DNA of 64,000 nucleotides from Flavobacteriales bacterium (GTDB lineage Bacteria; Bacteroidota; Bacteroidia; Flavobacteriales_D; Sanyastnellaceae), in NCBI GenBank assembly GCA_029242765.1, contig JAQWTJ010000004.1:72-64071 (forward strand), given 5' to 3'. The translations under genes were made by a program, and so were the position numbers. Below, piece after piece: positions 1,987 through 60,997 of the stretch. The first letter of the stretch is position 1, and every line of letters begins with the position of its first letter. The notes beneath the pieces are model-generated. The model was not told the origin of the DNA. It saw only the letters and a list, made by a program, of their open reading frames with translations, and ran no database searches.

Positions 1987-2036
1987 GATGCAAAGTTCGC
2001 TGAGATTGGCACAGATTTTGGAATTTGCGCGCACAA

Positions 2037-6128: not shown

Positions 6129-6142
6129 CGTACATTCGCAGC

Positions 6143-26195: not shown

Positions 26196-26377
26196 AGGTG
26201 TCAAGGGCGCGCAAAATAATGCATTTGCAGGGGACGCTCCCGATGAAATATCGCGACCTGGGCCGATGGGGTTGCATGCAACAAGCATAATGTGTATAAA
26301 CAGTTGATTACGTACGCCTTACGAGAGAGTAGAAATGTGCAACGTTTTCTGCTGCATCGCGTATTTGTTGTGTAGCT

Positions 26378-27397: not shown

Positions 27398-30300
27398 ATG
27401 CACAACATCTTCCGAATAGCAACCACCTGCTGTACGCTGCTTTGCACGCTCCTCTTTTTCCTTCAGACCTCATACGCTCAGGACACCGTCCACGTTTCAA
27501 TGATCACCACCTTGAGCGGAACTGAAATTGAGACGGCAATGCCGATTGGAGGTTGCAGTTTGACGGCCATTGACATTTCATTGAACATCGTCGCAGGCGG
27601 GAGCAATTGGGCGGGAGATATGGCCTTAGGCATCACTGCTCCAAATGGAGTTAGTATTCAATTTGGAGGGTACAACACAGGGTTCGGATACACCGAAGCC
27701 GCCGCTTGGCCCTCGGATTGGAACAGCACCTCGGACGGACTTTTTCAAGCGCACATTGGGGACTTGGCGGCCCACGGGCTGACCGGTGACGGGTGTTGGA
27801 CCGTGGAAATGATGAACGCCTGGACCTCAGGAGGGCCGTCTGACTATGTGCTAGAACTCGACTTGATCGGAGTTTGCTCAAGCGGTGGTTCGACGGGCTG
27901 TACCGATCCCCAGGCAAACAACTTTGACGACTGCGCCTTTGTCGACGACGGCTCGTGCACTTACCCGGAACTCAGCGCTGTATTTAGCTTTTCCCAAGAT
28001 TGCAGTGTGCCGGCTCTCGTTGAGTTCTCAGAACAAAGCTTAGGGAATGTTCAAAGTATGGCCTGGACCTTTGCCGGGGGGGACCCCGAAAGTTCGACCG
28101 ACCCCAACCCCATTGTGAGCTTTGCGTCGGTTGGCGATTTTGCGGTGACCTTGGAAGTGTACGACGATGAGGGCGGATCCGCAATCAATCTCGACACGGT
28201 GCACGTTTCAAATGCCCAGCGTCGCCTGCAAATTGTCATCACGCCTGATGCTTTCCCTTTCGAGACTTCATTTGCCGTGCTGAACGAAGCGGGTGACACA
28301 CTTCACCAAGGAGGTATTGAAGGGCTTGATGTGTGCGTTGAAGACGAATGCCTGGCAGTGTGGCTGCACGACAGTGGTGGCGACGGGTTCTCAATCGGCG
28401 GATTTTACAAGGTGCAGCTCGACGATGTGGTCTTGGAAGAGAACACGCACTTTGATGACGCCAAACTCGTGTACGCCGGGTGCCCTCAAGGGCAATCTTG
28501 TGACGACCCACTCATGATTATTGAGGGCGTGCAGACCGCGCCGCTTTCTGAGACGTGGTATGAAATCAATGTGCCGACCACTGGGCTTTATAAATTGGCC
28601 AGCTGTGGGCTGTCCCAGTGCGACACCGAAATCATCCTCTACGACCATTGTGACATGGCCGTATTCTGGGGAGAGAGCGAAGCCTTCATCACAGCGTCCG
28701 ACGACGACTGCGACGTGCAATCCCAAATCACGCCGATTATGGAGACCGGCATCACGTATTACGCGAGAATCGTGAACCACGACCCCAATTGCGACGGGGC
28801 GACGAGCTTCGAGTTTGAGGCCCTGGGGGGCGTTGTGGGGTGCATGGAACTTTTGGCCTGCAACTACCTGCCCATCGCAACGGAGCCGGACGTCTGCTAT
28901 TTTGCAGGCGACCCGGAGTGCCCCAGCTTCGGTCCTGATTTGATCATCAACGGCCCACGCGCGTACAGCACATTGGAATTGTACACTGAGAACAGCACCG
29001 ACGCCTGCATGATCGAAGAAGGCTGCATCCAAGGGTACGGTGAACGTGAGATCGTCCGATTCGACACTGAAATTGCGAACATCGGTACGGAGGACTATTT
29101 CATCGGCGCACCGAGCGCACAGCCCGAGCAATTCGAGTGGGATGCCTGCCACAATCACTACCACTATGAAGGCTATGCCGAGTATGCACTGTACACGAGC
29201 GGGGGCTCAGCTTGGCCGACGTTGGGCTTCAAGAACGGATTCTGCGTGATGGATTTGGGCGGCTGCAATTACGGTGGAGGTCCGGCCAAGTACACTTGCG
29301 GCTACATGGGCATCACAGCGGGCTGTCAGGACATATACTCGCGTTATCTCAACTGCCAATGGATCGACATCACGGATGTTCCCGCGGGCGATTACACATT
29401 GGTGATTCGGGTAAATTGGGATTTCTCTCCTGATGGCAATGGCTCCTACGAACTGGACTATTCAAACAACGCAGTGGCCATTTGTTTCTCTTTCGAACGG
29501 GACGATACGGGCGCTGCGGTAAACTTCACCAAAACCGAGGACTGCGATGTTCCGACGGATTGCCTCGGGGCGCCGTACGGGTCAAGCGTTCCGGACTGTG
29601 CCGGCAACTGCCCTGGCACCATTGTCAAGGGTGATTTGGACCTGGATGGGGAAGTCGACGCGGACGATCCGCTGGAGTACATCGACATGCTGATTGAGGG
29701 CGTGAGTACGGCAGCTCCGTGCGTGGATTTGAACGCGGACAGCGAATTGTCAGTCACCGATGCAGCGCTAGCTGCTGACTGCGCCTATTATGGCCACAAC
29801 CACTTGGGCGAAAATGGCGTGGAAAACCACTGCGATTGGAACGGGCCACTTCTTGCGCCTGACCAAAACGCCGAGTTCGGCATCAGCATGCCCTACCCCG
29901 ATTCCGCCTTTGTGGACTTGTCTGTGCACAATCCAACGTCTTGGCTGAGCAGTTGGGAAGTGCAACTGAGCGGGGCGACCTTCACCACGATTGAGCCCCT
30001 GTACGATACGACGGGCTTCCACCACCACTTTCAGGTCACACCCGAGGGCTACGCATTGTGTGTGGCGTTGGCCGACAGTTTGGTCGGCAAAAGTGCGTCG
30101 GTGCAGCCGTTGGTGCGCATTCACTTTGTTACGCCATCTTTCGACGGCGTATGCCTCGACAGCGTGGGTGACGTGACCAATGAAGATCGCCACGATATAA
30201 CGGCCACAGGCTCGGGATGCATCAACAGTGACGTGTGCACGGGCGACATCGACGGCAACGGCATCCGAGATGTGGGCGACTTGCTTGTAGCTTTAGGCGC

Positions 30301-30421
30301 CTTTGGATGCATAGGTGAAGGCTGTAGCGCATCAGATTTAGGCGCCGACCTTGACAACGACGGATTTGTGGGCGTAAACGACCTGCTCATTCTTCTGAGT
30401 TTGTTCGGGCAGCCTTGCTAA
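27398..30421 (+). CDS. secreted multi-domain lysyl-oxidase-like protein with dockerin-like C-terminal tails (LOX-1)
   Basis: Domain order is: signal peptide, P-domain-like module, Cys mini-module, PKD-like domain (aa ~193-270), TD..ETS/DSGGDG module, PPC-like module, LOX catalytic domain (aa ~512-700, CHNHYH...QWIDITDV), dockerin-like repeats, cohesin-like module. It ends in two EF-hand tails finishing LFGQPC*. Confidence 0.8.
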
Positions 30422-34405: not shown

Positions 34406-36826
34406 TCACTTGACCGTGAAACGCAACACCCGGCGAAAGTCACTTTCGGTTACCGTTAGGTAGTATGCACCCGACTGCAGGCTGCTTGCATCGAGTATCC
34501 AACGATTGCTGCTGCCCCACACGTCCCGCATCACTTTTCGGCCGAGCACATCGAGCACTTCAACCGAAGCGCCCTCAAGGCTTACCCCTTCAAAGCGCAC
34601 TTCAGCACGATTTTGCACAAGGTTTGGATTCATCTGCAAGTCGGACGATTCATTCGTCTCGCTCACATCGAGCGGGTTTGAGCAAGCCACACCAATGAGC
34701 GGCACGGTGTTGTGATACACGCCATTAATTACGTCCGTGATGTGGTCGATACAAATCTCCTCTTCAGCCTCCCCTATCCAGTAGATCCGGCACAAAGGCG
34801 TGTATTCGTAATGCTTCATCATCGCGTCGTTCTCATAGCTTAGTCCAATAATCTCTTGGCCTCCCAAAGAAAAAGAAGGCGTGATTGGGAACACGATAGG
34901 ATCAGCAAGCGAAACCACCGACTCGATGTCCAAACCGGCCATCGTAAATTGATAGCCCACGATTTTATTGAAGGGGTTCAAGACATTGATATCGACAAAG
35001 CCCTGCTCCCAGTTGACGGCTCCCAAGGAGAACCACACCGAATCGTAAGGGTTGGTGATGTGCGACGCGGGGAAGTTACACCGGTCGTGAAATCCGCTGG
35101 AGTCAGGATGTTGATGAGCAATATTCCAGACGTTGCACTGGGCAAGCAAGGCCGCATCAGCCACCGTGACTTCGCCATCTTGGTCGGCGTCCACACACAT
35201 TGTGGCTTCCAAATCGCCGCCTAGGATGCCCGAAACGTATGACTGGGCGTCGGTCAGGTCTTGGTCCATGTCGGCGTCAAGATCGCCTAGCAAGGCCGAG
35301 CCGTTGCATTCACCCGTGCAGTCCACCACGGCTGTTCCGTATTGGTCTCCGTTGCAATCAACTAAAATGCTGCAATCCTGGATTTGCTCCACCTCAATTT
35401 CGCCCATTGAGCGGTCAATGTTGATGCAAACCACGCCCCAGTTGTTTTCGTACTGATTCTCGTAACGCCCCAGCGCATCAGGACTGTAATCCCAATTCAC
35501 TCGAACAACCAAGTGGTAGTCGCCGTCGGTGACGTCGGTGACATCAATCCATTGGCAGCTCAAACCGGAACCATAAATGTCGCCGCAATGGGCCGAGATG
35601 CCCATAATGGAGCATCCGTACTGGCCCGTGCCGCCATCACCGCACTCGAGGTCCATCACGCAGAATCCGTTCTTGAATCCAATCGGAAGCATGTTGCCGT
35701 CCATATCGAACAGGTCGTATCTCGCGTAGCCTTTGTAATGCCAGTGATTGTGGCAGTCCCCCCATTCAAATTGAACCGTCGAATCGTTGTTCGAGGTTGA
35801 ACCAATGTAATAATCGAGGTCTCCGATGTTCTTGATATGCGTGGTGAAGCGAACCAAGTCGCGCTCACCGTACCCGTTGAGGCAGCCTTCAGAAATGTAG
35901 CAATTGTTCTCGTCCACAGCCATCGTCTCAGCGGAGAGTGAATTTTCAATGGCCGAAGTCACGATGACCAGGTCCGGTCCTGTGCAATCTGGATCCCCTG
36001 GGTAAATGCAGCTTCCGTTGTCAATTTCAGCCCCCGGTTGATAATTGCACGCCGTTTCATCCATACAACCTTCTGGCAATCCCGCATAGTCAAACCACCA
36101 CTCAAAATCATCACAATCATCCAAGCTCGTGAAGCGTATCCAATACGTCACGCCGCCTTCGAGCAAAACCGTGAGCTGAGCTGACTCCGCCATGCCCTCG
36201 CAACCGCCTTGTTCGTCGTCGTAGTAGATCGAGCCTTCATTGGTGCTGTTAAAGTTGTTCATGTTGCAGTAATCGTACACCCACAAGCGCGTGTCACAAT
36301 TCGTTCCGCAACTGGACAAATCGTACATGCCGTTTTGATCCGGCGTAAAAGTGTACCACTGGACATCGGCATTTGAGGTGATCCACGTGCCGTAGTCAGC
36401 GGCGGTCAGCGGGGCGCCCGTGTCACAAATGGCACCCTCAGGACAACCGATCCAATGATTCTCTACAAACCCATAATTACCGCTATTGGTGATGACGGTA
36501 TCGCCGTCAAGCAGGACGGTGTAAGAACCGGGCGCGCTGAGCCCGTCGCCGTACGAATCAATCATAGAGAATCGCCAACAGGCGGTAAGTTCGTCTGCAC
36601 TAAAGCAAAGCGTGTCGCTCTCATACGTGCCCTCTGCAAGAAGTACATTGTCCCCGTCGTACAACCCCCACGAAATTTCTTGAGGCCAACTGTCAGGCAC
36701 AATCGACACGACCACTTGGGCCTCACTTTCAAGGCAATCTTGGGAGAAAACAAAGTTGGAAGAGACCGCAAAAGCAATCGTCAAAAGGGTGGTCAGCCCC
36801 GAAAAAAGGAGGTTTTTTAGGTTCAT
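34406..36826 (-). CDS. secreted multi-domain lysyl-oxidase-like protein with T9SS type A CTD (LOX-2)
   Basis: Signal peptide from the ATG at 36826 (MNLKNLLFSGLTTLLTIAFAVSSNFVFSQ). It then has the DSYGDG module, PPC-like module, Cys mini-module, LOX domain (CHNHWH...QWIDVTDV), dockerin-like repeats and cohesin-like module. The CTD is LQMNPNLVQNRAEV...LQSGAYYLTVTE...LRFTVK. Confidence 0.8.
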   Translation of the reverse strand: MNLKNLLFSGLTTLLTIAFAVSSNFVFSQDCLESEAQVVVSIVPDSWPQEISWGLYDGDNVLLAEGTYESDTLCFSADELTACWRFSMIDSYGDGLSAPGSYTVLLDGDTVITNSGNYGFVENHWIGCPEGAICDTGAPLTAADYGTWITSNADVQWYTFTPDQNGMYDLSSCGTNCDTRLWVYDYCNMNNFNSTNEGSIYYDDEQGGCEGMAESAQLTVLLEGGVTYWIRFTSLDDCDDFEWWFDYAGLPEGCMDETACNYQPGAEIDNGSCIYPGDPDCTGPDLVIVTSAIENSLSAETMAVDENNCYISEGCLNGYGERDLVRFTTHIKNIGDLDYYIGSTSNNDSTVQFEWGDCHNHWHYKGYARYDLFDMDGNMLPIGFKNGFCVMDLECGDGGTGQYGCSIMGISAHCGDIYGSGLSCQWIDVTDVTDGDYHLVVRVNWDYSPDALGRYENQYENNWGVVCINIDRSMGEIEVEQIQDCSILVDCNGDQYGTAVVDCTGECNGSALLGDLDADMDQDLTDAQSYVSGILGGDLEATMCVDADQDGEVTVADAALLAQCNVWNIAHQHPDSSGFHDRCNFPASHITNPYDSVWFSLGAVNWEQGFVDINVLNPFNKIVGYQFTMAGLDIESVVSLADPIVFPITPSFSLGGQEIIGLSYENDAMMKHYEYTPLCRIYWIGEAEEEICIDHITDVINGVYHNTVPLIGVACSNPLDVSETNESSDLQMNPNLVQNRAEVRFEGVSLEGASVEVLDVLGRKVMRDVWGSSNRWILDASSLQSGAYYLTVTESDFRRVLRFTVK

Positions 36827-37074
36827 GGTTTCAGTTGTCCTAAGCAGGTGTAAAGCATAACCCAGTTGAATAGAAAGGGGTTGCACAAGTGGTGAAAGGT
36901 ACAGAGCCGTGTGCTACTTTTGTAGGCACAACAGCACCGCAAGTTATGTCGCACGAATTTCATGAACCCGAAGAGAACGAAATCGCAGGCCCCGTTGTGT
37001 TGGCCCTGTTGATTGTAGCCATCATCGTCGTCTCCATCGCCTTGATGTAAGGCTCAACGGCCTTGGCACAAGGT

Positions 37075-49958: not shown

Positions 49959-50540
49959 TCAACGGGCCAAAAAATGGCCGGACAAGACGCGTTTGGCCTT
50001 CAAGTAGTCTGCGTTCTCAGGATGATGGCCCACATCGATTGGTAAGCGGCCTACAACTTCCACCCCGAAGCGTTGTAATCCTTCCACTTTATCGGGGTTG
50101 TTCGTCATCAATCGCACCTTTTCCACGCCCAGTTCAGCGAGAATTTCAGCCGCTGGTCGGTAATCACGAGCATCTTCAGGGTGGCCCAGTGCTGTATTTG
50201 CAGCAAACGTATCAAGCCCTTGCTCCTGCAAGTTGTACGCCTTCAATTTTTCGACCAATCCGATGCCCCGCCCTTCTTGACGCAAGTACAACAAGAGACC
50301 ACCATGCTCGCTGACATGTGCAAGGGCCGCATCGAGCTGCGCACCACAATCGCAACGCGTTGAACCAAATACGTCTCCCGTCATGCACTCGCTGTGAATG
50401 CGCACGTCAAGAACGCGCGAAGCCGGAGACGCTTCCCCATGTAAAACAACATGGGGAAATACGTCTCCGGCTTTACCGAAGGCCATCACGGTGAAACCGC
50501 CATGGCGCGTAGGCAATCGCGCTTCAGCTAGTTTTTTCAT
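49959..50540 (-). CDS. ribA: GTP cyclohydrolase II
   Basis: VRIHSECMTGDVFGSTRCDCGAQL (zinc Cys triad), LYLRQEGRGIGL, AYNLQEQGLDTFAAN and LMTNNPDKV. Confidence 0.9.
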   Translation of the reverse strand: MKKLAEARLPTRHGGFTVMAFGKAGDVFPHVVLHGEASPASRVLDVRIHSECMTGDVFGSTRCDCGAQLDAALAHVSEHGGLLLYLRQEGRGIGLVEKLKAYNLQEQGLDTFAANTALGHPEDARDYRPAAEILAELGVEKVRLMTNNPDKVEGLQRFGVEVVGRLPIDVGHHPENADYLKAKRVLSGHFLAR

Positions 50541-50564
50541 TGGCGCAAAGGTAGCGCGCGCCGT

Positions 50565-53500
50565 TCATTCGCAAGGCTGTCCGAAGGCGCCCAGTAGTAA
50601 AAGCAAGTCACCCACAGAATTGGTGCCGTCGCCGTTGATGTCAGTGGGGCAGCTCGAAGTGCCGCTCAGTTCACAACTGCCGTCATCCTGGTTGGCTGTA
50701 GGGTCATAGTTGTCTGCCGCCTCGTACGTGCAGCCCAAAACAATCGGCGTTGCACAGCTTCCATCATCGATTCCAGCGAATGGATCGTATTCTGCACTGA
50801 AGGGGTCGGTGCAACCCTCACATGCTGAGCAACTATTAAAGCAAACGACGTCCTCCAATACAGTACCAGTCAAGACAAGCGTGCGATTGAATCCACCCTG
50901 GCCGTTGTCTGCGCCACACTCGCCTGGCACAACCTCTTGACCATCCCAAGTATTGCCATTGATATACAAGAACTGATATGATCCGCTGGACAACTGCATG
51001 CTGTACTCATATATGCCCAAGCCAGGTGTCGTCAGTGCCGTAGCTCCAGGGTCCCATCCTTGGAAGGCTCCTGCCACGTGCACCCCTTCAGCAGCAACCG
51101 TTTGATTGCTCATGTCCACTCGTATGGTCACGTTGTAGACACATGAACCATCATCCGTTGCCGCATCTTCATCGTAATTCACCGCATCCGTGTCGGTGCA
51201 ACCTACAGCTGCGTCACATGCCCCACACTGATTGTAGCATACAGTTGCAAGCGCCACTGCGCCCGCCACATCTAAGGCTCTATTGGTATAGCCACCAATG
51301 GTGGTGGTGCAGGGAGCTCCTTCTGCAAACTCTTCCTGATTGGTCCATCCATCCAATGTGAATTTGTATTCAATGGTACCCAAGGCCAAAGGCACGGTCA
51401 ATTCATACACTGAATTGCCCACATCGGTCAATTCTGAACATCCGCCGCACCAGCCATTGAATGTCCCGTTCAGATTGACGGTGCCATATCCGCCGGTGTA
51501 CAATGACATGTCCACACTGAAGGTGACGTCGTATTGGCAAGTTCCGTCGTCTTCAGTTGCTGCGTCGTTGTAATTCGCTGCCTCTGCATCCGTACATCCT
51601 GACACAGGCCCACCGGAATCACACGCGTCACACTGACCATAGGTGTCTGCAGGATTTGCTGAACCCACCTCCCACTGACGGTTGGCGTAGGACGAATAGT
51701 CCGTAAGAGGCGCACAAGCACCGCCGTCGATCATCGCCTGGATCAAGCTCTCCTGAGCACCATTGACGACCCACAGGTATTCCATGTTGTCTGTAGGCAC
51801 TGGGTCAAGAACCGCGGACCACGTGCCGTCTCCGTTGTCCGTAGCCTCAGGGCCTCCATTGGGATCCCAGCCCCACCAAGGACCGGTCATTCTAGCGGAG
51901 GTTATATCGGTGATACCGCTGCAAGACACATCAAGCGAAACAGTCAACCCAGAAGGAGCCGCACACGCGTCACACTCATTGTAGCAAACCGTTGGAAGCA
52001 CTTCTGTAGCCGCCACGACCAAGCTTCTGTTGGTATAGCCCTCAATGGTGCTGGTACAGGAAGTTCCCTCTGCAAACTCTTCCTGATTGGTCCAGCCGTC
52101 CAATGTGAATTTATATTCAATCGTGTCCTGTGTCACAGGTATAGTCAATTCATACACTGAATTGCCCACATCGGCCATTGCAGCACATCCGCCGCACCAG
52201 CCATTGAATGTCCCGTTCAGATTGACGGTGCCATATCCGCCGGTGTACAATGACATGTCAACACTGAAGGTGACGTTGTACTGACAAGATCCGTTGTCTT
52301 CAGTTGCAGCGTCATTGTAGTTCAATGCTTCTGAGTCCGTACAGCCCGACACAGGTCCACCGGTATCACACGCGTCGCACTGACCGAACGTGTCCGCAGG
52401 ACTTTCCGAACCTGCCGCCCACTGACGGTTGGCGTAAGATGAGTAGTCCGTTAAGGGTGCACAAGTGCCGCCGTCTATCATCGCCTGGATCAAGCTTTCT
52501 TGAGTACCATTGACGACCCACAGGTATTCCATGTCAGCTCCAGGTGCCGGATCAAGGACCGCGGACCACGTGCCGTCTCCGTTGTCAGTGGCCTCAGGGC
52601 CTCCGTTGGGATCCCAGCCCCACCAAGGACCGGTCATTCTAGCGGAGGTTACATCGGTGATTCCGCTGCAAGACACATCAACCGAAACGGTCAACGAAGG
52701 GTCTACAGCGCCACACGCATCACACTCATTGTAGCAAACAACTGAAAGCACTTCTGCACCCGCTACATCCAAGGTTCTGTTGGTATAGCCACCAATGGTG
52801 CTGGTGCAGGAAGCTCCTTCCGCAAACTCTTCCTGATTGGTCCAGCCGTCCAATGTGAATTTATATTCAAAAGTGCCCAAGGCCAAAGGCGTGGTCAATT
52901 CATACACCGAATTGCCCACGTCGGTCATCGCAGCACAATCGCCACACCAGCCATTGAATGGACCGTTCAGGTTTACCGTGCCATATGCACCCATGTACAT
53001 TGACATGTCCACGCTAAAGGTGACATTGTATTCACAAGATCCGTTGTCTGTAGTCGCGGTGTCGTCATAGTTGGCTGCTGTGTTATCTGTGCAACCAGAA
53101 TTTGCTGCGACTTTAGAACACGTTCCATCCGTCGAACATTCCGCGAAGCACGTCGAAATCGTTGTGTTTTCTGTAATGTTCAACAACTGCCGGTCGTTGT
53201 AATTGCCGGGGTCACCACACGGCAAACCAGCCAAGTTCTCTTTACAGGCCCAACTGGGACAATTGCCATTGGTGAACGCGTAGTACCCGGTATAGTCGTA
53301 TGGGAGTGTTTTAGTAATCGTCCAGATGTCATCACCATCCGTGTCGTCCATTGGATTGGTGCCTGGGACTCCAAAATCCAAACCACCTGCCAAAAACACA
53401 CCGTCGGGAGACGTGGTCTCATTGGCCATGTTCACCTCGAAGGTGACATCCACTGTAGTCGGAGCGGCCTCTTCCACCACAATCGTGCCCACCATACCAT

Positions 53501-53846
53501 TTGCCGCATGGGATCCAAGGCTGCAATCGTAATTGTAACTGCCCGGGGTATTCAACGTCACTGTTCCCATGCAAACACCACCAGCAGCGCCTGAATTCGC
53601 TGCCAACGCAAACGTTTCAGGATTGGTCCAGCTGTCACCGAGAGAACTGGTTACACCATTGACATTATGGTTGCCGCCTTCATTAAAAAAGGCTATGGAC
53701 TGGCCAGCGGTAATTGTGAGGGTCTGAGGGTTGAAGTAAAAATTTCCAGCAAGGACCGTATGGTCCGCGCCCGTACAGTCTTGAGCTTGGACAAAGCCAA
53801 AGGAAAAGACCGTGATGCAAAGCAGCAATAAGTTGCGCATAATCAT
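50565..53846 (-). CDS. secreted protein: N-terminal cupredoxin + about 7 CBM20/48-like beta-sandwich modules + Cys mini-modules + dockerin-like C-terminal tail
   Basis: Signal peptide MIMRNLLLLCITVFSFGFVQAQ. Type-1-copper-like ligands are GGNHNVNG...YDCSLGSHAANGMVGTIVV. Repeated modules read NGxFNGW...YELT...EYKFTLDGW. The product ends CPTDINGDGTNSVGDLLLLLGAFGQPCE*. Confidence 0.75.
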   Translation of the reverse strand: MIMRNLLLLCITVFSFGFVQAQDCTGADHTVLAGNFYFNPQTLTITAGQSIAFFNEGGNHNVNGVTSSLGDSWTNPETFALAANSGAAGGVCMGTVTLNTPGSYNYDCSLGSHAANGMVGTIVVEEAAPTTVDVTFEVNMANETTSPDGVFLAGGLDFGVPGTNPMDDTDGDDIWTITKTLPYDYTGYYAFTNGNCPSWACKENLAGLPCGDPGNYNDRQLLNITENTTISTCFAECSTDGTCSKVAANSGCTDNTAANYDDTATTDNGSCEYNVTFSVDMSMYMGAYGTVNLNGPFNGWCGDCAAMTDVGNSVYELTTPLALGTFEYKFTLDGWTNQEEFAEGASCTSTIGGYTNRTLDVAGAEVLSVVCYNECDACGAVDPSLTVSVDVSCSGITDVTSARMTGPWWGWDPNGGPEATDNGDGTWSAVLDPAPGADMEYLWVVNGTQESLIQAMIDGGTCAPLTDYSSYANRQWAAGSESPADTFGQCDACDTGGPVSGCTDSEALNYNDAATEDNGSCQYNVTFSVDMSLYTGGYGTVNLNGTFNGWCGGCAAMADVGNSVYELTIPVTQDTIEYKFTLDGWTNQEEFAEGTSCTSTIEGYTNRSLVVAATEVLPTVCYNECDACAAPSGLTVSLDVSCSGITDITSARMTGPWWGWDPNGGPEATDNGDGTWSAVLDPVPTDNMEYLWVVNGAQESLIQAMIDGGACAPLTDYSSYANRQWEVGSANPADTYGQCDACDSGGPVSGCTDAEAANYNDAATEDDGTCQYDVTFSVDMSLYTGGYGTVNLNGTFNGWCGGCSELTDVGNSVYELTVPLALGTIEYKFTLDGWTNQEEFAEGAPCTTTIGGYTNRALDVAGAVALATVCYNQCGACDAAVGCTDTDAVNYDEDAATDDGSCVYNVTIRVDMSNQTVAAEGVHVAGAFQGWDPGATALTTPGLGIYEYSMQLSSGSYQFLYINGNTWDGQEVVPGECGADNGQGGFNRTLVLTGTVLEDVVCFNSCSACEGCTDPFSAEYDPFAGIDDGSCATPIVLGCTYEAADNYDPTANQDDGSCELSGTSSCPTDINGDGTNSVGDLLLLLGAFGQPCE
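51204..53096 (-). repeat. about 2.5 tandem copies of a ~750-bp coding repeat inside the 50565..53846 gene
   Basis: Protein aa 251-500, 501-749 and 750-~881 are near-identical. Antisense shadow ORFs recur at 51340, 52087 and 52837 (offsets 747 and 750 bp) and at 51763 and 52510. Confidence 0.85.
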
Positions 53847-54057
53847 TGATTATAAATTGATTAAATCCTAGTGAGTCTAAAGATAGCACGAGAGAGTGTA
53901 CAACATACACCCCCACCCCAAACCAAGAGTGAAATTGAATAAATGCATCAGGTAAATCCACAACCCCAGAACTCTTTACAATCAAGGCAGGCACAGAGTT
54001 ACGATGCTCCACCCTAGTGCTTTTGCACGTTCACAAACTTTCCTCTATTTCCATCAC

Positions 54058-55419
54058 TCAAGATGACCGTCTCATGTCCTGTGGACGGATAATGAGGTTG
54101 AGCAAAGCCGCCAAAACAAGACTAACTCCGGCCAGCGTCATGGTGTTGATAGCCTCTGTTCCGAGAAACGTTTTGTAGGCCCAATTGACGCCTCCTAGCG
54201 CTGCTACAATTTGGGGGATTACTATGAACATATTGAACACGCCCATGCCGACCCCCATTCGCTGAGGGTCTAGTGCTTCCGACAACATGGCATATGGCAT
54301 GGACAAGATGCTGCCCCACGCAAAGCCAATGAGGACAAAGCTCACGTTCAACATTGAAGAAGTCTCCGGCGTCCAATACGCCATACTGATAAAGCCCGCA
54401 GCACCCAACGCAAGACTCACCAAATGAACAAGCCGCTGATCAATGCGGCGGCTTCGCGTCCATAAGGTGAGCAACAAAGCGAAAACCATGCTGCTCAAGC
54501 CGTATACGCCCATGGCGCTGGAAACGGCATTGGCCGCATCATTGTAGGCCCCATTCAAGACGGAAAAATTGGCCGCATCCTCCAGAGGCATCGGGGCCCC
54601 AAAAACATGCTCGGTCAAAGCGGGTGTCGCGAATGCCCACATCGTAAAGAAGGCAAACCAACTGAAGAACTGGATGAGCCCCAATTTGCGCATCACCACG
54701 GGCATGCCTTCCACGGCTCCAATCAACTCCTTCATCCCATTGAGCAGCCCCGCCGTGGCTCTTTTCTGCTTCTCAAAAACGGCCAGGTCCTCCGGCGGAT
54801 TCTCATCTGTAGTCAGAATGGTCACCAAGATGGAGGCCATGAAAACAAAAGCTCCGATCGCAAAAGCCACAAACACACTCGGCGGCAACTCACCCGCAGC
54901 CGCCTCATTGGACACGCCCAACTTTGTCACCATCCAAGGTAAATTCGACGCAATCCAGGTTCCGATGCCGATAATCAGGGTCTGCACTACAAAGCCATAT
55001 GATCGCTGCTCAGGCGGCAATTTGTCCGCCACCAAGGCCCTGAAGGGTTCCATGGAAATGTTGATGCTGGCATCGAGAATCCACAAGAAGCCCGCTGCCA
55101 TCCACAACTCCGCGCTGTAGGGCATAAAGAACAAAGCCAAGGTGCTGAGCACAGCACCGAGGAAAAAATACGGGCGACGGCGCCCCCAGCGCGGGGACCA
55201 GGTGCGGTCGCTCAAATGACCGATAATCGGTTGGACAAGCAGACCGGTCAACGGCGCTGCAATCCAAAGCATAGGGATTTCGTCCGTGGACGCTCCAAGC
55301 GACTGAAAGATGCGGGACATGTTGCCCCCTTGAAGAGCAAAACCGAATTGAATCCCCAGAAACCCGAAACTCATGTTCCAGATTTGACGGAAAGAAAGGC
55401 GGCGAACAGGTGCAGACAT
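54058..55419 (-). CDS. MFS sugar transporter (GPH/SLC45-like)
   Basis: FGFLGIQFGFALQGGNMSRIFQSLGA...PLTGLLVQPIIGHLSDRTWSPRWGRRRPYF is typical of SLC45-type disaccharide/H+ symporters. About 12 TM segments. ATG at 55419. Confidence 0.8.
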   Translation of the reverse strand: MSAPVRRLSFRQIWNMSFGFLGIQFGFALQGGNMSRIFQSLGASTDEIPMLWIAAPLTGLLVQPIIGHLSDRTWSPRWGRRRPYFFLGAVLSTLALFFMPYSAELWMAAGFLWILDASINISMEPFRALVADKLPPEQRSYGFVVQTLIIGIGTWIASNLPWMVTKLGVSNEAAAGELPPSVFVAFAIGAFVFMASILVTILTTDENPPEDLAVFEKQKRATAGLLNGMKELIGAVEGMPVVMRKLGLIQFFSWFAFFTMWAFATPALTEHVFGAPMPLEDAANFSVLNGAYNDAANAVSSAMGVYGLSSMVFALLLTLWTRSRRIDQRLVHLVSLALGAAGFISMAYWTPETSSMLNVSFVLIGFAWGSILSMPYAMLSEALDPQRMGVGMGVFNMFIVIPQIVAALGGVNWAYKTFLGTEAINTMTLAGVSLVLAALLNLIIRPQDMRRSS

Positions 55420-55482
55420 AAGGCTCAATATAGGCCCGTTGGTGTGCCTTCTACACCTCGCTCATCCACAACGTGCGGCCGT

Positions 55483-57795
55483 TTACTCACATACGCTATC
55501 GAAGGCGGATAGGAATTCTAGCAAATCAGGCGCCCCAACCAAGCCATCACCATTGAGGTCCGACGGGCAATCGCCACCGCCCAAGGTGAATGTGCATGTG
55601 CCGTCGTCAAGTGTAGCCTCACTGTCGTAATTTTCACCTTCTGTGTACGTGCATCCAGCGCAAGTACTGAACTCGCATGTGCCATTGTCATCCGTTGCTT
55701 CAGGATCGTAGTTGCATGCACCGCTATCCGTGCAGCCGTTATTTGTATAAGTTTCCCCGTCCGTGTAGTCCTCAGCATCATCGCCGGCGCCGCCGCCGCC
55801 CACTTCAAGCGAGCCTTCATCGGTGACGGAGTCGTCCACAACACGTTCCCCTACACTGGCCACCCGGTATTGAATGCCCGCCTCAAACACGAAACCACTG
55901 TCCATAGGCAGCGTGACTTGTGCCACGCGAATGGCGCGTACACATCCCGGACGATCTTGCAAGACGTCGCAAGCATCGACAGGCACGCCTTGAATGGCCC
56001 CCGTCTCAATTCTCCAGCCGACGGTGTCGCCTACGGCCATTGCCGTAAGGCCGAAATTGAAGCTGTCTATTGACTCAATCGTATCTCCGCTGAAGCCGAT
56101 GGGTGTAACCTGCAAGCCATCACCGAAGGTGCCACCGATGGTGAACCAGCTGTCCGCTCGCAAATTGACATCGGTGTAGGTCACCCCGTCCACCTCCACA
56201 GTATGCTGCAAAGCCGAAGGCTCCCAAGCTCCAGAATCCGCCTGATGAAGGCTTGAAAAGGTCGAAAATGAGAGCGCGATATCGCTGGTGCCCAACACCT
56301 TCTCCAATTGAATAGTGCCCGGAGGCATCAAAGCATAAATCTCACCGGTGTACGTCCCAGGCACACCACCCTCGTCATAGGCGTTGATGCTCGTGCGTGA
56401 AAAAGAAAAAATGGCTGTATAAATGCAGTCGCTATCATCTGCAATCATCACGGTAGAGTCGTAGTTGGTCGCTTCAGGGTCCGTACAACCAGAACAAGAA
56501 GTGTACTCACACAAGGCCGGATTGACGATCAAGGCGTCGGGGTTGTAGTTGCAGGCCCCCTCATTGCCACAGTCTGCACACGACACATAGTCACAGTTGT
56601 TTTCCTCTGCAAATGCCTCCGGGTCGTAGTTGCAAGCAGAGGGGTCAGCGCAACGCTCATTGAAGGCGTCATCGCCGATGCAAACGCCGTTGCCGTCCAG
56701 GATGAACAAAGCGGGGTTTTCATCGCTGCAATCAATCGGTTGAAAGATGTATGCCTCACCAATTTCCGAGCAGTTCACATTGAAAGCTGAAAGCACCAAA
56801 TCAGTCGTATCACTTGAACGATAGCCGTCATTGTCTACGTCGCGAAAACAAAGCTCTTGACCGTCGCAATTGCCATCGATGCCGTCGCCGGGAATCTCAT
56901 CTGCCCCGGGGTGAGCATCTGGATTGAAATCATTGCAATCTCCACCCACCATTGCTAAGCCCGGACCAAACTCACATGCATACGTCACATCCGTTCCATA
57001 GCCATCGCCGTCATTGTCCACAAAATACATTTGCTCAAAGACGCAGCTTCCATCATCCACCGTTGCATCGCTGTTGTAATTGCAAGCCGAGATATCCGTA
57101 CAACCCAGTAGTTCATCGGGGAATGTCAAAGTGGTGTTATATACGAGGCCCACGCCTTCCGTTTCAACAATCCTAGTTTGTAAGTTGAGCTCGACTGTGA
57201 CGAATCCATCCGTTGTGAATTGGCCCATCAAGACCCTCCCATTTTCATCAGGAAGCCCTTGCACAAAAGTCAATGTCGTGGTGTAGAAAGTGCCCCCCAC
57301 TGGATCGTCAACGACTTCGAAAGACCCCCCGTCCTCAAAGTTCACACCCTGCAAATGCCAAGGCGTCGACCCGGTGTTTGACGTCTCGTTGTCGATGGCG
57401 TCTTCGTAATCTATGGTGAACCAGCTGTCGTAGGCCAATTCAGGAAAACCACTGATTAATGCGGGGTTCACACCGGTCGCCAAAAGCGTTCCAAACGGGT
57501 GCTGGTAAAAGGAACCTGTCGGCACAACGCGCATGGAAGATCCTAACAAGCCCACGCTGTTGGCGAAAATTGCTTGGAGGGCCTCGCCTTCATCAGTAAA
57601 ATTGGCATAGACCCGATAAGTGTGAAAGTTATCGGGAAGGCTATTGGCCTGAATCAATTCGTAGCTAAGGCCTGTAAACGACGTATTCTCAGTGATCTCC
57701 TGAGCGGAAACGACAGGTCCAGTCATCGCAAACAACAGCGCAAGAACCCCTGTCAGGGCTGAACATACAAAAGCGGAGCTGTTGATTTGACGCAT
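55483..57795 (-). CDS. secreted protein: unnamed TYRVYA/DSWFTI domain (1 clear + 1 divergent copy) + MopE-like metal-binding motif + 6 Cys mini-modules + dockerin-like C-terminal tail
   Basis: Signal peptide from the ATG at 57795 (MRQINSSAFVCSALTGVLALLFAMTGPVVSAQ). It ends CPSDLNGDGLVGAPDLLEFLSAFDSVCE*, and I see no T9SS CTD pattern. Confidence 0.7.
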   Translation of the reverse strand: MRQINSSAFVCSALTGVLALLFAMTGPVVSAQEITENTSFTGLSYELIQANSLPDNFHTYRVYANFTDEGEALQAIFANSVGLLGSSMRVVPTGSFYQHPFGTLLATGVNPALISGFPELAYDSWFTIDYEDAIDNETSNTGSTPWHLQGVNFEDGGSFEVVDDPVGGTFYTTTLTFVQGLPDENGRVLMGQFTTDGFVTVELNLQTRIVETEGVGLVYNTTLTFPDELLGCTDISACNYNSDATVDDGSCVFEQMYFVDNDGDGYGTDVTYACEFGPGLAMVGGDCNDFNPDAHPGADEIPGDGIDGNCDGQELCFRDVDNDGYRSSDTTDLVLSAFNVNCSEIGEAYIFQPIDCSDENPALFILDGNGVCIGDDAFNERCADPSACNYDPEAFAEENNCDYVSCADCGNEGACNYNPDALIVNPALCEYTSCSGCTDPEATNYDSTVMIADDSDCIYTAIFSFSRTSINAYDEGGVPGTYTGEIYALMPPGTIQLEKVLGTSDIALSFSTFSSLHQADSGAWEPSALQHTVEVDGVTYTDVNLRADSWFTIGGTFGDGLQVTPIGFSGDTIESIDSFNFGLTAMAVGDTVGWRIETGAIQGVPVDACDVLQDRPGCVRAIRVAQVTLPMDSGFVFEAGIQYRVASVGERVVDDSVTDEGSLEVGGGGAGDDAEDYTDGETYTNNGCTDSGACNYDPEATDDNGTCEFSTCAGCTYTEGENYDSEATLDDGTCTFTLGGGDCPSDLNGDGLVGAPDLLEFLSAFDSVCE

Positions 57796-58013
57796 ATCGA
57801 GTGAGTTAATTTGACTGTGTAAGTTAAGGACTATCGGGTTCATTATGCTCTCATTTACAAAGCCGTAGGAGAATTAAGATTCCTCCGACAATTGCAAATC
57901 AGAAGGCCGAACCAACCGAAATTGATCCGGCCTTCCGGAGCTAAAGATGCGAGGCAGTTTCTTGCCTTTGACAAAACTGACTTAAGTCACTTGTTCCGCT
58001 GACGGTTGTTCTC

Positions 58014-59732
58014 TTAGTCGCAAGTTCCACCGTAGGCTGCAAGGAAAACAATCAAGTCAGCCGAACCGATGATGTTGTCATCGTTCACATCGAAAGGACA
58101 AGAACAATCACCGCCTTCAAAGATGCAGCTGCCGTCGTCCAGGTCGGCTTCCATATCGTAGTTCGTCGCATCAGGGTACGTACATCCCTGCGTTCCGACA
58201 ATCAAAAACTCACAGCTGTCATCGTCGCTCGTGGCCGCCGGGTCGAAATTCTGTGCATCGCCATCCGTGCAGCCTGCAATCACGCAAGAGCCATCATCGT
58301 CGGTGGCCGCATCGTTATAGTTGTCCGCATCGGGGTTCGTACAACCGGGCACTTCATCCTCATCGCACACGCCGTCGCCGTCCACATCATTGAGGCAGTT
58401 TCCATCACAATCCACCGTGTTGGCGGGGTAATTTGGCGGGTACTCACACAAGGTGTTGTCCACAACGGGCGCCATAGGGTTGTAGTTGCAAGCCTCGCTC
58501 TCATGGCAGCCCGCGCAGGAAACATAGTCGCAAGTCCCGTCGTCAAAGTCAGCGGCTGGATCATAGTTGCATGCACCGGCGTTAGTACAACCGGGGGTCA
58601 CCACGGGAAATGTGATGGCCAAGCCGACGTGCTGCGGGTTGGAGCCGTCTTCTGCACGGTACTGGAGATTCACCAGCATGTCAACAATGCCGTCGGTCGT
58701 GAATTGACCGATCAAAACGCGGCCTTGGGCGTCAGGGAACGCCAAGGGCTCGAGATCCGGATAAATGTACCACGACCCACCGTATAGGTCATCGATAACG
58801 AGGCTCCCGCCGTTTTCAAAGTCCGTTGTTGGGACCGCTAAATTCTGTAGATCCACAGCATTGTCCTCACCTCCAATGGTGACCCAAGAATCATACACGA
58901 GGTCGGGAAACAAGTCGCCAATGAGCAAGGGGTTGATTTGACTCGCAAATGCTCCTCCGTAGGGGTCTTGGAAGAAGGTCCCTGTCGTCGTGATTGAAAG
59001 GGTTGTGTCTTGAATGCCATACAGGGCCACAAGTTGATCGTTCGGGTTGTCAAAGTTGGCATACACGCGGTACGTGTTAAAACCATCAGAAGTCGTGTTC
59101 TCCCCTACCGTTTCATATGTCAATCCTTGAAAACTGGTCATTTCCAAGGTTAGACCCTCCTCGCTGTGCACGTCAAGTGCGGAGTCACGCCACTGCAAAT
59201 TGCCTTCAAACGTGAAGCCACCCGTGGTGGTGAGCTGCGCAAGAAGCACTCGGCCTCCCACAGGCTCGCCCAAGGGGTTGTCTGGTGTGACGAATACGCT
59301 TCCTCCAACGGCATCGTTGACGTAAAAATCACCACCCGCCTCAAAGGCCACAACAGCCGAGTTCCAAGCGCTACCACCGACGGTGGACCCGTCCAGAACC
59401 GGTGAATTGTCCTCCTGGCCGATGGTCAGCCACGAGTCATATTCAATGCCGTCAATCACACCAATCAACCCCGCGTTGACATCCTTAGCAAAGGCCCCAC
59501 TGTATTCATTCTGGTAAAAACCAGCGCCCGAAGTGATATTGATTGCATATGGCGATTCAGCCCAGAAAGCCTGTAAAATATCAGAAGAGTCGTCAAAATT
59601 AGCATACACACGGTACGTCGTTCCGTAGGAAGACGTGGCGTGAATTTCATAAGTGAGACCTGTGAAGTCAGCGAATGCTGAGGTGGAGATGGCCACAAGA
59701 GCAGCCATGGCGAGTACGAGTCGTTGGTACAT
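58014..59732 (-). CDS. secreted protein: two tandem copies of the unnamed TYRVYA/DSW.TIG domain + 5 Cys mini-modules + dockerin-like C-terminal tail
   Basis: Signal peptide MYQRLVLAMAALVAISTSAFA. The domain copies are aa 23-197 and 201-378. It ends CSCPFDVNDDNIIGSADLIVFLAAYGGTCD*. Confidence 0.7.
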   Translation of the reverse strand: MYQRLVLAMAALVAISTSAFADFTGLTYEIHATSSYGTTYRVYANFDDSSDILQAFWAESPYAINITSGAGFYQNEYSGAFAKDVNAGLIGVIDGIEYDSWLTIGQEDNSPVLDGSTVGGSAWNSAVVAFEAGGDFYVNDAVGGSVFVTPDNPLGEPVGGRVLLAQLTTTGGFTFEGNLQWRDSALDVHSEEGLTLEMTSFQGLTYETVGENTTSDGFNTYRVYANFDNPNDQLVALYGIQDTTLSITTTGTFFQDPYGGAFASQINPLLIGDLFPDLVYDSWVTIGGEDNAVDLQNLAVPTTDFENGGSLVIDDLYGGSWYIYPDLEPLAFPDAQGRVLIGQFTTDGIVDMLVNLQYRAEDGSNPQHVGLAITFPVVTPGCTNAGACNYDPAADFDDGTCDYVSCAGCHESEACNYNPMAPVVDNTLCEYPPNYPANTVDCDGNCLNDVDGDGVCDEDEVPGCTNPDADNYNDAATDDDGSCVIAGCTDGDAQNFDPAATSDDDSCEFLIVGTQGCTYPDATNYDMEADLDDGSCIFEGGDCSCPFDVNDDNIIGSADLIVFLAAYGGTCD

Positions 59733-59926
59733 TTTTTAGTCTAAAAATCGTTAGGTAAATTTAAGTGCAAGACGAGTATATCCGCCAATGATTCTTGTCA
59801 TCATTATACAGTTCCAATGAAAACAAGTCTCAAAGCACATATTTCTCGACTAACCAGGAATATATCTTCAAATCATCCGAAATTCAACGAGGCTGTGTTG
59901 TCGAATCCACCCCTGTATTGGTCGAA

Positions 59927-60997
59927 TCAGTCAACGTTGCGCCCCACCGCGTTGAGATCATCAAAGGCCTGCTCAAGACGACTGACAAAATACGTTTCGC
60001 CTTGGCGAAGCCACACGCGCGGGTCATACTTCTTCTTATTCGGGATGTCCGTTCCCTCAGGATTGCCAATCTGTCCCTGCAGATAGGCTGACCAATCCCC
60101 AACGTAATCGCGCACACCGCAGAGGTAGGCCCATTGCATATCCGTGTCGATGTTCATTTTAACAGCACCGTATGAAATGGCCTCACGAATTTCTTCCCGA
60201 GTGGATCCCGATCCACCGTGAAAGACGAAGCGCACCGGCTTGGGGCCTGTTCCAAACTCCTTCTGCACGTAGGCTTGCGAATTTTTAAGGATCACTGGCG
60301 TCAGCTCGACATTGCCCGGTTTGTACACACCGTGGACATTTCCAAAGGCAGCTGCAATGGTGAAATTGGGCGACACCTCACTGAGCTCCTTGTACGCATA
60401 AGCCACATCCTCGGGCTGCGTATACAAATGTGCTGCGTCGATGTTCGTGTTGTCTACGCCGTCCTCTTCCCCACCGGTTACACCAAGCTCAATTTCCAGG
60501 GTCATGCCCATGGGAGCCATCCGCTTCAAGTAGGCCTTGCATGTTGCGACATTCTCCTCAAGCGGCTCTTCGCTGAGGTCGATCATATGTGAGCTGTAAA
60601 GAGGGCGGCCGAATTTTGCAAAATGGGCCTCGCTGCGGCCGATCAATCCGTCCATCCAAGGTAAAAGTTTGCGCGCGCAATGGTCCGTGTGCATAATCAC
60701 CGGTACGCCGTACGCATGGGCCAATTCATTGACGTGAAGCGCTGCAGAAACGCTGCCCAACACCGCAGCACCCTCGTCCTTCATTTGGAGCGACTTGCCA
60801 GCATAGAACTTTGCACCTCCGTTGGACAGTTGCATAATGACGGGCGAGTCCATGCGGGCCGCCGTTTCCAGCACCGCATTCAGCGAATTGGTGCCGATGA
60901 TATTGACCGCTGGGAGTGCGTAGCCCACATTTTTTGCATCGTCAAGCAAGGCATTGGCATCATCTCCAAAGAGGACACCGGAAGGGAATTTAGACAT
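59927..60997 (-). CDS. fbaA: class II fructose-bisphosphate aldolase
   Basis: YALPAVNIIGTNSLNAVLETAARMDSPVIMQLSNGGA, HTDHC, FGNVHGVYKPGNV and FVFHGGSGS. Confidence 0.9.
   Translation of the reverse strand: MSKFPSGVLFGDDANALLDDAKNVGYALPAVNIIGTNSLNAVLETAARMDSPVIMQLSNGGAKFYAGKSLQMKDEGAAVLGSVSAALHVNELAHAYGVPVIMHTDHCARKLLPWMDGLIGRSEAHFAKFGRPLYSSHMIDLSEEPLEENVATCKAYLKRMAPMGMTLEIELGVTGGEEDGVDNTNIDAAHLYTQPEDVAYAYKELSEVSPNFTIAAAFGNVHGVYKPGNVELTPVILKNSQAYVQKEFGTGPKPVRFVFHGGSGSTREEIREAISYGAVKMNIDTDMQWAYLCGVRDYVGDWSAYLQGQIGNPEGTDIPNKKKYDPRVWLRQGETYFVSRLEQAFDDLNAVGRNVD

Follow-up and report, generated by a model that had tools for sequence, protein, structure and literature searches.

The DNA analyzed here (the window) comprises 64,000 nucleotides of contig JAQWTJ010000004.1 (NCBI GenBank assembly GCA_029242765.1) from an uncultured marine member of the Flavobacteriales, with a GC content of 54%. 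Four exported proteins are encoded in which the stop codon follows, after 0-1 residue, a cysteine-bracketed EF-hand loop and helix, termed here the tail. Proteins of 1093, 786, and 572 amino acids (aa) each carry a single tail of 28-30 residues, consisting of a calcium loop and a helix, and are encoded on the minus strand; translated on the plus strand, the coordinates of these tails give no meaningful protein. The fourth protein, the lysyl oxidase LOX-1, carries a double tail and is encoded on the plus strand. The initial annotation had placed this motif at the extreme C-terminus of four proteins; all five instances were recovered at their positions, and the open reading frames (ORFs) end as it had quoted them. 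The kinship of these tails with the dockerins, the genes that carry them, and their possible role are described below.

50565..50651, minus strand: tail of the 1093-aa protein (50565..53846, minus strand), translated as C-P-T, loop D-I-N-G-D-G-T-N-S-V-G-D, helix LLLLLGAFGQP, C-E, stop; C-terminal end CPTDINGDGTNSVGDLLLLLGAFGQPCE, then stop
55483..55569, minus strand: tail of the 786-aa protein (55483..57843, minus strand), translated as C-P-S, loop D-L-N-G-D-G-L-V-G-A-P-D, helix LLEFLSAFDSV, C-E, stop; C-terminal end CPSDLNGDGLVGAPDLLEFLSAFDSVCE, then stop
58014..58106, minus strand: tail of the 572-aa protein (58014..59732, minus strand), translated as C-S-C-P-F, loop D-V-N-D-D-N-I-I-G-S-A-D, helix LIVFLAAYGGT, C-D, stop; C-terminal end CSCPFDVNDDNIIGSADLIVFLAAYGGTCD, then stop
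30236..30421, plus strand: double tail of LOX-1, translated as two Cys-bracketed loop-helix units, C..FGC-x4-C..FGQPC, stop

Detection, conservation, and position of the tail

A hidden Markov model (HMM) was trained on the tails of other organisms, with the window's own sequences excluded for independent scoring. With this model the single tails scored 35.6-40.7 bits (E 7e-11 to 3e-9), namely 37.1 bits for the 1093-aa protein, 35.6 bits for the 786-aa protein, and 40.7 bits for the 572-aa protein; the corresponding scores with the full tail HMM were 43.6, 43.3, and 47.0 bits. The two LOX-1 repeats scored 22.3 and 33.6 bits with the window-excluded model. No domain score fell between 8 and 20 bits among 8632 ORFs, and given this bimodal distribution the tail was taken to be real, with chance or low complexity ruled out as its source. 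A loose six-frame regular-expression scan of the window, applied to ORFs of 80 aa or more, gave five matches. The second LOX-1 repeat and the tails of the 786-aa and 1093-aa proteins were matched 10-11 residues short of the stop, and the other matches were to an internal MopE-like stretch and to the first LOX-1 repeat. The tail of the 572-aa protein was missed because the expression demanded a glycine at loop position 6, where this tail has an asparagine. Counts from a promoter and terminator scan of the tail gene cluster equaled the shuffled expectation.

Conservation was assessed in a search set consisting of the window and 81 related loci, 1.24 Mb in total. Eighty of the related loci were retrieved from GTDB species representatives, all of them metagenome-assembled genomes (MAGs), and their retrieval with a closer subset of tails biases the set towards an '[IV]GSADL[LI]xFL' subgroup. 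The tail HMM matched 146 domains in 145 ORFs. In 145 of the 146 matches the domain ended no more than 8 residues from the stop codon, the single exception being the first repeat of the LOX-1 double tail. The restriction to the last residues of the protein, for which the initial annotation had proposed an HMM scan, thus held across the set.

Among 40 diverse aligned tails, invariance was limited to the two bracketing cysteines and the Asp residues at loop positions 1 and 12. Of 127 unique tails, 125 fitted the pattern C-x(2-4)-[12-residue loop]-helix-C, and the following statistics were computed over those 125.

Cys-Cys span: 27 residues in 119/125 tails
Bracketing Cys: both present in 125/125 tails
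Residues beyond the last Cys: 0-4
Loop length: always 12
Loop position 1: D, 100%
Loop position 3: D, N, or T, 100%
Loop position 5: D or N, 96%
Loop position 6: G, 94%
Loop position 8: I or V, 91%
Loop position 12: D, 100%

By its predicted ligands, the tail loop is a canonical EF-hand or dockerin-type Ca2+ loop. The 40-tail alignment and the 125-tail statistics agree with the earlier description of a Ca-binding loop and an amphipathic helix with a cysteine at both ends, calcium binding itself being predicted from sequence. The consensus originally written for the tails fits overall, although two of them depart from it: loop position 6 is N instead of G in the 572-aa protein, and the tail of the 786-aa protein has ...FDSVC, in which the last Cys is not preceded by Gly. 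An exposed helix face, D-L-L-x-F-L-x-x-[FY]-G, was also strongly conserved.

Homologs of the 572-aa protein fall into 1555 clusters at 90% identity. The same single tail was found at the end of 112 of the 120 best homologs, and at least 7 of the 8 tail-less ones were truncated, frameshifted, or assembly-chimera sequences. A search with a 41-aa tail alignment returned 49 candidates, all short fragments, and was not used as a census.

Relationship to the dockerins

When the tail profile was compared with the PDB, the best matches were type I dockerins, 2y3n_B (E 2e-6), 1ohz_B, 2ccl_B, and 1daq, each of which was matched twice, once per dockerin repeat. The sole curated family matched was NCBIfam NF041540, 'GC-type dockerin domain-anchored protein', a 67-position profile with a curated cutoff of 29 bits. 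The LOX-1 double tail covered all of positions 1-67, at 20.9-21.5 bits and under the cutoff, and the tail of the 786-aa protein covered positions 34-67 only (19.1 bits, E 1.2e-3, also under the cutoff). NF041540 gave no match to the tails of the 1093-aa and 572-aa proteins. Of 40 diverse single tails it matched 11, the best at 19.1 bits and none (0/40) at 29 bits, while in a control it matched 40/40 double tails of other proteins (best E 1.2e-11). Half-models built from double tails scored the single tails at 33 bits for the N-terminal half and at 38.6 bits for the C-terminal half, and the C-terminal half-model outscored the N-terminal one in 119 of 121 tails. PF00404 (Dockerin_1) reached 10.2 bits (E 0.92) on the LOX-1 tail, against a gathering threshold of 22.9, and had no match in the three single tails.

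The AlphaFold2 model of the LOX-1 double tail had a predicted local distance difference test score (pLDDT) of 85 and a predicted template modeling score (pTM) of 0.72. The top 19 Foldseek matches to it were all dockerins, including 4u3s_B and 5k39_B, and the best was 2y3n_B, with TM-scores of 0.76/0.82 and a root-mean-square deviation of 1.3 A over 59 columns. For the last 48 residues of the 572-aa protein, modeled by AlphaFold2 with the tail alignment as input, a helix (residues 33-42 of the segment) is predicted directly after the loop, with pLDDT 81-88 over the tail. The dockerin-like character initially ascribed to the motif is therefore corroborated by the PDB profile matches, by NF041540, and by the dockerin fold of the LOX-1 double-tail model; the search of NCBIfam and Pfam for C-terminal dockerin models that had been suggested led to NF041540, matched below its threshold. 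As judged from profile coverage and the predicted fold, LOX-1 bears a divergent yet complete GC-type dockerin. The three single tails are, by their predicted repeat content, naturally single-repeat ('half') GC-type dockerins, closest to the C-terminal repeat.

An exhaustive profile search returned 17,148 cluster representatives at E<=1e-3. Among the matches listed (the best 150 of 17,148), all were multi-repeat proteins. The top matches were mostly double tails of the form C-P-x-D...FG-C-x(2-3)-C-x-x-D...[FW]G-x-x-C at the extreme C-terminus, bracketed repeat by repeat, which indicates that the Cys bracket is a per-repeat property of the whole GC-type family. Double tails ending in WGPCP were present as well, and among the matches listed other proteins of the superfamily had 4-13 internal repeats. 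One group (P0132, P0140, P0145, P0186, and similar proteins of 300-475 aa) combines 4-6 internal dockerin-like repeats with a conserved, non-repeat C-terminal end, '...HPRGH.(L/M)SV(V/I)G'; the repeat is therefore not always terminal outside this clade.

In public annotation the single-tail proteins are labeled 'hypothetical protein', because their scores lie under the NF041540 cutoff. A literature search found no paper describing the GC-type dockerin family and nothing specific on dockerins in marine Flavobacteriales or on 'choice-of-anchor', and the single-repeat disulfide-bracketed form was not found in the searchable literature. The kind of domain is already known, as a curated NCBIfam domain of the dockerin superfamily; what is new is the single-repeat Cys-bracketed form, which lies outside the curated model.

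Architecture of the carrier proteins

The tails terminate four proteins of differing composition, listed here with carbohydrate-binding modules abbreviated as CBM and 'NYD' modules as defined below.

50565..53846, minus strand: carrier 1, 1093 aa; signal peptide, cupredoxin-like domain, CBM and NYD modules, tail
55483..57843, minus strand: carrier 2, 786 aa; signal peptide, uncharacterized N-terminal domain, MopE-type motif, NYD modules, tail
58014..59732, minus strand: carrier 3, 572 aa; signal peptide, two 'FTGLTYE..YRVYANF..DSWxTIG' domains, NYD modules, tail
27398..30421, plus strand: carrier 4, LOX-1, 1007 aa; signal peptide, PKD domain, lysyl oxidase domain, weak Dockerin_1-like stretch, double tail

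The signal peptides and cysteine richness ascribed to the carriers earlier were both confirmed. Signal peptides of the signal peptidase I (SPase-I) type, judged by eye, are present on 4/4 carriers, three of them in keeping with the Bacteroidota Gln+1 rule; Cys makes up 3.3-4.9% of the carriers, compared with about 1% in cytoplasmic neighbors. A lipoprotein anchor was ruled out, as there is no lipobox in the four carriers. Carrier 1 contains 3-4 alpha-glucan-binding-type modules (CBM48/AMPK-CBM/X25) with Cys-bracketed NYD modules in between.

The NYD module is a Cys-bracketed unit of about 20 aa with the pattern C-T-[DN]-x2-A-x-N-[YF]-[DN]-x2-A-x2-D-[DN]-G-[ST]-C, and it is matched by no Pfam or NCBIfam model. 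A copy at 50673..50732 (minus strand) and 12 more separate the domains of the three single-tail carriers, and the module also occurs at residues 168-187 of LOX-1 and residues 274-293 of LOX-2, a lysyl oxidase paralog described below. As LOX-2 ends in a type IX secretion-type C-terminal domain and contains the module once, the module is not tail-specific.

Carriers 2 and 3 share a domain of about 170 aa with the landmarks FTGLTYE..TYRVYANF..DSW(L/F)TIG..GRVL(I/L)GQ(F/L)TT, duplicated in the 572-aa protein (residues ~22-380) and present once in the 786-aa protein (~50-245), for which no Pfam or NCBIfam match was found. In LOX-1, residues 744-791 (29627..29770, plus strand) form a weak internal Dockerin_1-like stretch (PF00404, E 0.038, 14.6 bits), and precomputed PF00404 annotations exist in two LOX homologs.

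Gene cluster and related genomes

The three single-tail genes form part of a cluster that is shared among species.

49959..60997, minus strand: cluster; found also in L003, L004, L007, L011, L013, and other related loci
54058..55428, minus strand: major facilitator superfamily (MFS) transporter (GPH / sucrose-symporter-like), located between tail-bearing genes and itself without a tail

The gene order is fructose-bisphosphate aldolase, one or two tail proteins, a GPH-type MFS transporter, a multi-CBM tail protein, and RibA, and it is kept in at least 42 of the 81 related loci, in different species. The one or two tail proteins named before the MFS transporter in this order have an uncharacterized N-terminal domain. 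The CBM protein of the cluster combines multiple CBM48/X25/CBM20 modules with the tail, often together with a cupredoxin domain. At least two carriers (two or three) were present in 51 of the 82 sequences of the search set. The conserved gene order suggests that the cluster is an uncharacterized alpha-glucan-binding or uptake cassette without SusC/D.

A metagenome contig of the same species (L001) has the same genes at 97-98% amino-acid identity. The 80 loci from GTDB species representatives come from MAGs labeled Flavobacteriales, Crocinitomicaceae, or Bacteroidota, with a few contigs evidently mis-binned. Six loci with typical Flavobacteriales tail clusters (L006, L055, L033, L059, L068, and L073) belong to MAGs labeled Methanobacteriota archaeon, Nitrosopumilus sp., or Comamonadaceae, and probably reflect mis-binning or contamination.

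Relation to the type IX secretion system

The assignment of the organism to those with a type IX secretion system (T9SS) was upheld by the contents of the window. A PorP/SprF gene adjoins the gene for a SprB-repeat protein with a type B C-terminal domain (CTD); the match of TIGR04131 to the type B CTD, at 74 bits (23061..26288), served as a positive control. Type A CTDs were represented by two proteins with sub-threshold PF18962 matches, and two further proteins had C-termini that were type A-like by eye only. No T9SS CTD (TIGR04183/PF18962 or TIGR04131/PF13585) was found in the four carriers at E<=1 with Pfam and NCBIfam models, in agreement with the initial annotation.

A side observation concerns the start of the window, where a TamB-like protein of 1367 aa (2025..7192, plus strand; PF04357, E 1.6e-40) is encoded. 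It is directly followed by a gene for a 355-aa protein with a type-A-like CTD, the stop and start codons overlapping.

The two lysyl oxidase paralogs of the window lie 4 kb apart and each match PF01186 at about 102 bits.

34406..36886, minus strand: LOX-2, 826 aa; lysyl oxidase (PF01186) with a type-A-like CTD (PF18962), no dockerin tail

They differ at the C-terminus, LOX-1 having a GC-type dockerin and LOX-2 a T9SS type-A-like CTD, for which PF18962 scored 21-24 bits, under the gathering score of 27. All of the roughly 20 LOX-1 orthologs (43-96% identity) carry the double tail at their C-terminus, and three more distant LOX homologs (P0299, P0301, and P0302) have PF18962 in place of the dockerin tail. 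The presence of bacterial lysyl oxidases in marine Flavobacteriales is in itself unusual. Double tails are also carried by reprolysin-like metalloproteases, subtilases, and a DNase I-like nuclease.

In this clade a tail and a T9SS CTD were never found on one protein, and nothing lay beyond the tail in the 145 carriers. The mutual exclusivity to be expected of an alternative signal holds to that extent, but not for the GC-type dockerin as a whole. In three Bacteroidota-type proteins, P0135, P0154, and P0266, the double form (24-41 bits) stands directly upstream of a type A CTD (32-45 bits, over the cutoff of 23), with a gap of about 20-50 residues. Removal of the CTD would leave the dockerin as the new C-terminus in these three proteins. 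The GC-type dockerin is therefore neither intrinsically exclusive with the T9SS nor an obligately terminal signal; it behaves as a domain able to function after T9SS export, not as a competitor of the CTD. A novel short T9SS CTD was ruled out as an identity for the tail, given the lack of similarity, the different fold class, and the true CTD found behind the domain elsewhere. Features of sortase-type signals (LPXTG, PEP-CTERM, GlyGly-CTERM) were likewise not seen in the tail, which ends in G-x-x-C-[ED] and has no transmembrane segment or basic residues.

Proposed role of the tail and alternative explanations

On balance we lean towards the tail being a retained, disulfide-stapled, Ca-dependent docking or assembly module on co-encoded exported proteins. 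After Sec export and cleavage of the signal peptide, the module would fold in an oxidizing, Ca2+-rich compartment, where the two bracketing cysteines would form a disulfide that staples the half-domain and where the loop ligands would bind Ca2+. The folded tail could then serve as a small protein-protein docking module, through either tail-tail pairing or the binding of two tails to one receptor. EF-hand-type units are normally stable only in pairs, which makes pairing or docking the most likely mechanism. Such pairing may assemble the proteins of the cluster (those with uncharacterized domains, the MFS transporter, and the multi-CBM48/X25 protein) into a complex, and the same pairing could tether them to a cell-envelope partner. 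The tail would thereby be retained as a functional domain and not cleaved as an export signal. The position of the GC-type dockerin ahead of the T9SS CTD in P0135, P0154, and P0266 suggests that the domain can function outside the cell.

Several observations weigh against this docking role. A Pfam scan of 24 window ORFs revealed no cohesin-like domain, and no binding partner was found. The carriers have SPase-I signal peptides and no recognizable signal for crossing the outer membrane. An NYD module lies 4-9 residues upstream of every single tail, so the functional unit may exceed the tail. The 48-aa single-tail model is of moderate confidence overall (pLDDT 77), and Foldseek returned 0 matches with it, the model being too small.

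The initial annotation had regarded the tail as a candidate alternative sorting or anchoring signal. Anchoring is plausible and fits the curated name of the family. A dedicated C-terminal sorting signal, read by a T9SS-independent export or anchoring machinery as an alternative to type A and type B CTDs, would account for the terminal position in 145 of 146 matches, for carriers that have signal peptides and no T9SS CTD, and for the presence of either a dockerin tail or a T9SS CTD on paralogs and homologs of one enzyme (LOX-1 and LOX-2; P0299, P0301, and P0302). One match that joins a 'choice-of-anchor Q' domain to dockerin_GC also places the domain among alternative C-terminal anchors. However, the tail shares homology with an interaction domain that folds stably, cellulosomal dockerins are mostly C-terminal too and are not sorting signals (PMC12270676), and the double form is found internally with a true T9SS CTD after it. 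Furthermore, hydrophobic and basic segments are both absent from the tail, and neither a candidate translocon nor a candidate processing enzyme was found in the conserved neighborhood. We consider a sorting signal unlikely: a folded domain of a docking family that occurs internally before a true CTD and lacks sortase-type features gives no support to the sorting part of the earlier proposal.

It is also possible, though improbable, that the carriers are periplasmic, hence their lack of a T9SS CTD, and that the tail is a Ca-dependent oligomerization or stabilization module acting, for example, beside the inner-membrane MFS transporter. Cupredoxin domains are typically periplasmic, and carrier 1 has one; the SPase-I-type signal peptides with no lipobox and no CTD, the conserved synteny with the MFS transporter, and the compatibility of an oxidizing periplasm with a disulfide all agree with this location. 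The double tail, however, is carried by typical exoenzymes (the lysyl oxidase with its PKD domain, reprolysin-like metalloproteases, subtilases, and the DNase I-like nuclease), and the T9SS CTD on LOX homologs implies an extracellular role for the lysyl oxidase. An occurrence of the GC-type dockerin in front of a T9SS CTD also speaks for the outside of the cell, and a Cys-rich multi-CBM architecture exceeding 1000 aa is more characteristic of surface proteins. Very unlikely, in our view, is a partnerless cap, stabilized by Ca2+ and the disulfide, that shields the C-terminus of a Cys-rich NYD-module stalk from exoproteases. A cap would suit the constant position of an NYD module ahead of the single tail, the failure to find a partner, and a Ca2+-rich marine setting, but the conserved exposed helix face goes beyond what a cap needs, the tail is homologous to interaction modules, a lone EF-hand unit is unlikely to be stable, and the carriers cluster within genomes.

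The docking module may be carried one step further, to a rather doubtful extension. In abundant uncultured marine Flavobacteriales, disulfide-stapled single-repeat dockerins could constitute a Ca-dependent assembly code, with the tails of co-encoded proteins paired or placed in twos on a receptor. The code would build a cellulosome-like surface complex for alpha-glucan capture around the MFS importer, and exoenzymes such as proteases, nucleases, and lysyl oxidase would be localized by it with no need of a T9SS CTD.

Implications

Marine Flavobacteriales are major polysaccharide degraders, and in many of their largest exported Cys-rich proteins both a T9SS CTD and a lipobox are lacking. A C-terminal module common to such large exported proteins offers a handle on their destination and assembly partners. 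Neither the single-repeat form nor the LOX-1 double tail is recognized by NF041540, so that the label 'hypothetical' is attached to hundreds to thousands of proteins; a dedicated half-domain model would correct these annotations. If the assembly code were true, it would represent the first large natural family of functional half-dockerins and a T9SS-CTD-independent route to cell-surface localization in Bacteroidota.

Comparison with known systems

T9SS type A and type B CTDs resemble the tail in position, at the C-terminal end of large exported proteins of the same organism, and they alternate with it among paralogs. They differ in fold, a beta-sandwich of 70-100 aa, and in being cleaved once transport is complete, and have no sequence or structural similarity to the tail. 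Type I and type II cellulosomal dockerins (PF00404) contain an F-hand Ca-binding loop and a helix after it, which the tail is predicted to share, along with the Asp at loop position 12, whereas the tails are Cys-bracketed and occur without a cellulosomal context. The closest curated model is the GC-type dockerin NF041540, which has the same repeat unit (C-P-x-D, 12-residue loop, helix, and [FW]-G-x(0-2)-C) and the same extreme C-terminal position; the single tails differ in having one of its two repeats.

A functional precedent for a single repeat is provided by the group-2 dockerins of Ruminococcus flavefaciens, which consist of a single Ca2+ loop and helix and were found by experiment to be functional (PMC12270676). 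A single cohesin binds two copies side by side, and the copies target their proteins to the cell surface; according to the authors, no functional, naturally truncated dockerins other than the five R. flavefaciens sequences are known (PMC12270676). Compared by description, the tails likewise have one Ca2+ loop and helix and are C-terminal on exported proteins. The R. flavefaciens domains, in contrast, belong to a Gram-positive cellulosome with ScaE as cohesin partner, have no Cys bracket, and number five sequences in one species, while the tails occur in Gram-negative marine Flavobacteriales with no known cohesin, have two invariant cysteines, and form a large family (145 carriers in 1.24 Mb; 1555 clusters for one carrier family). 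Given the five sequences known from R. flavefaciens, a large, conserved single-repeat dockerin family with a built-in disulfide staple would be new material, which could inform the stability and specificity of half an EF-hand pair and the design of minimal docking tags.

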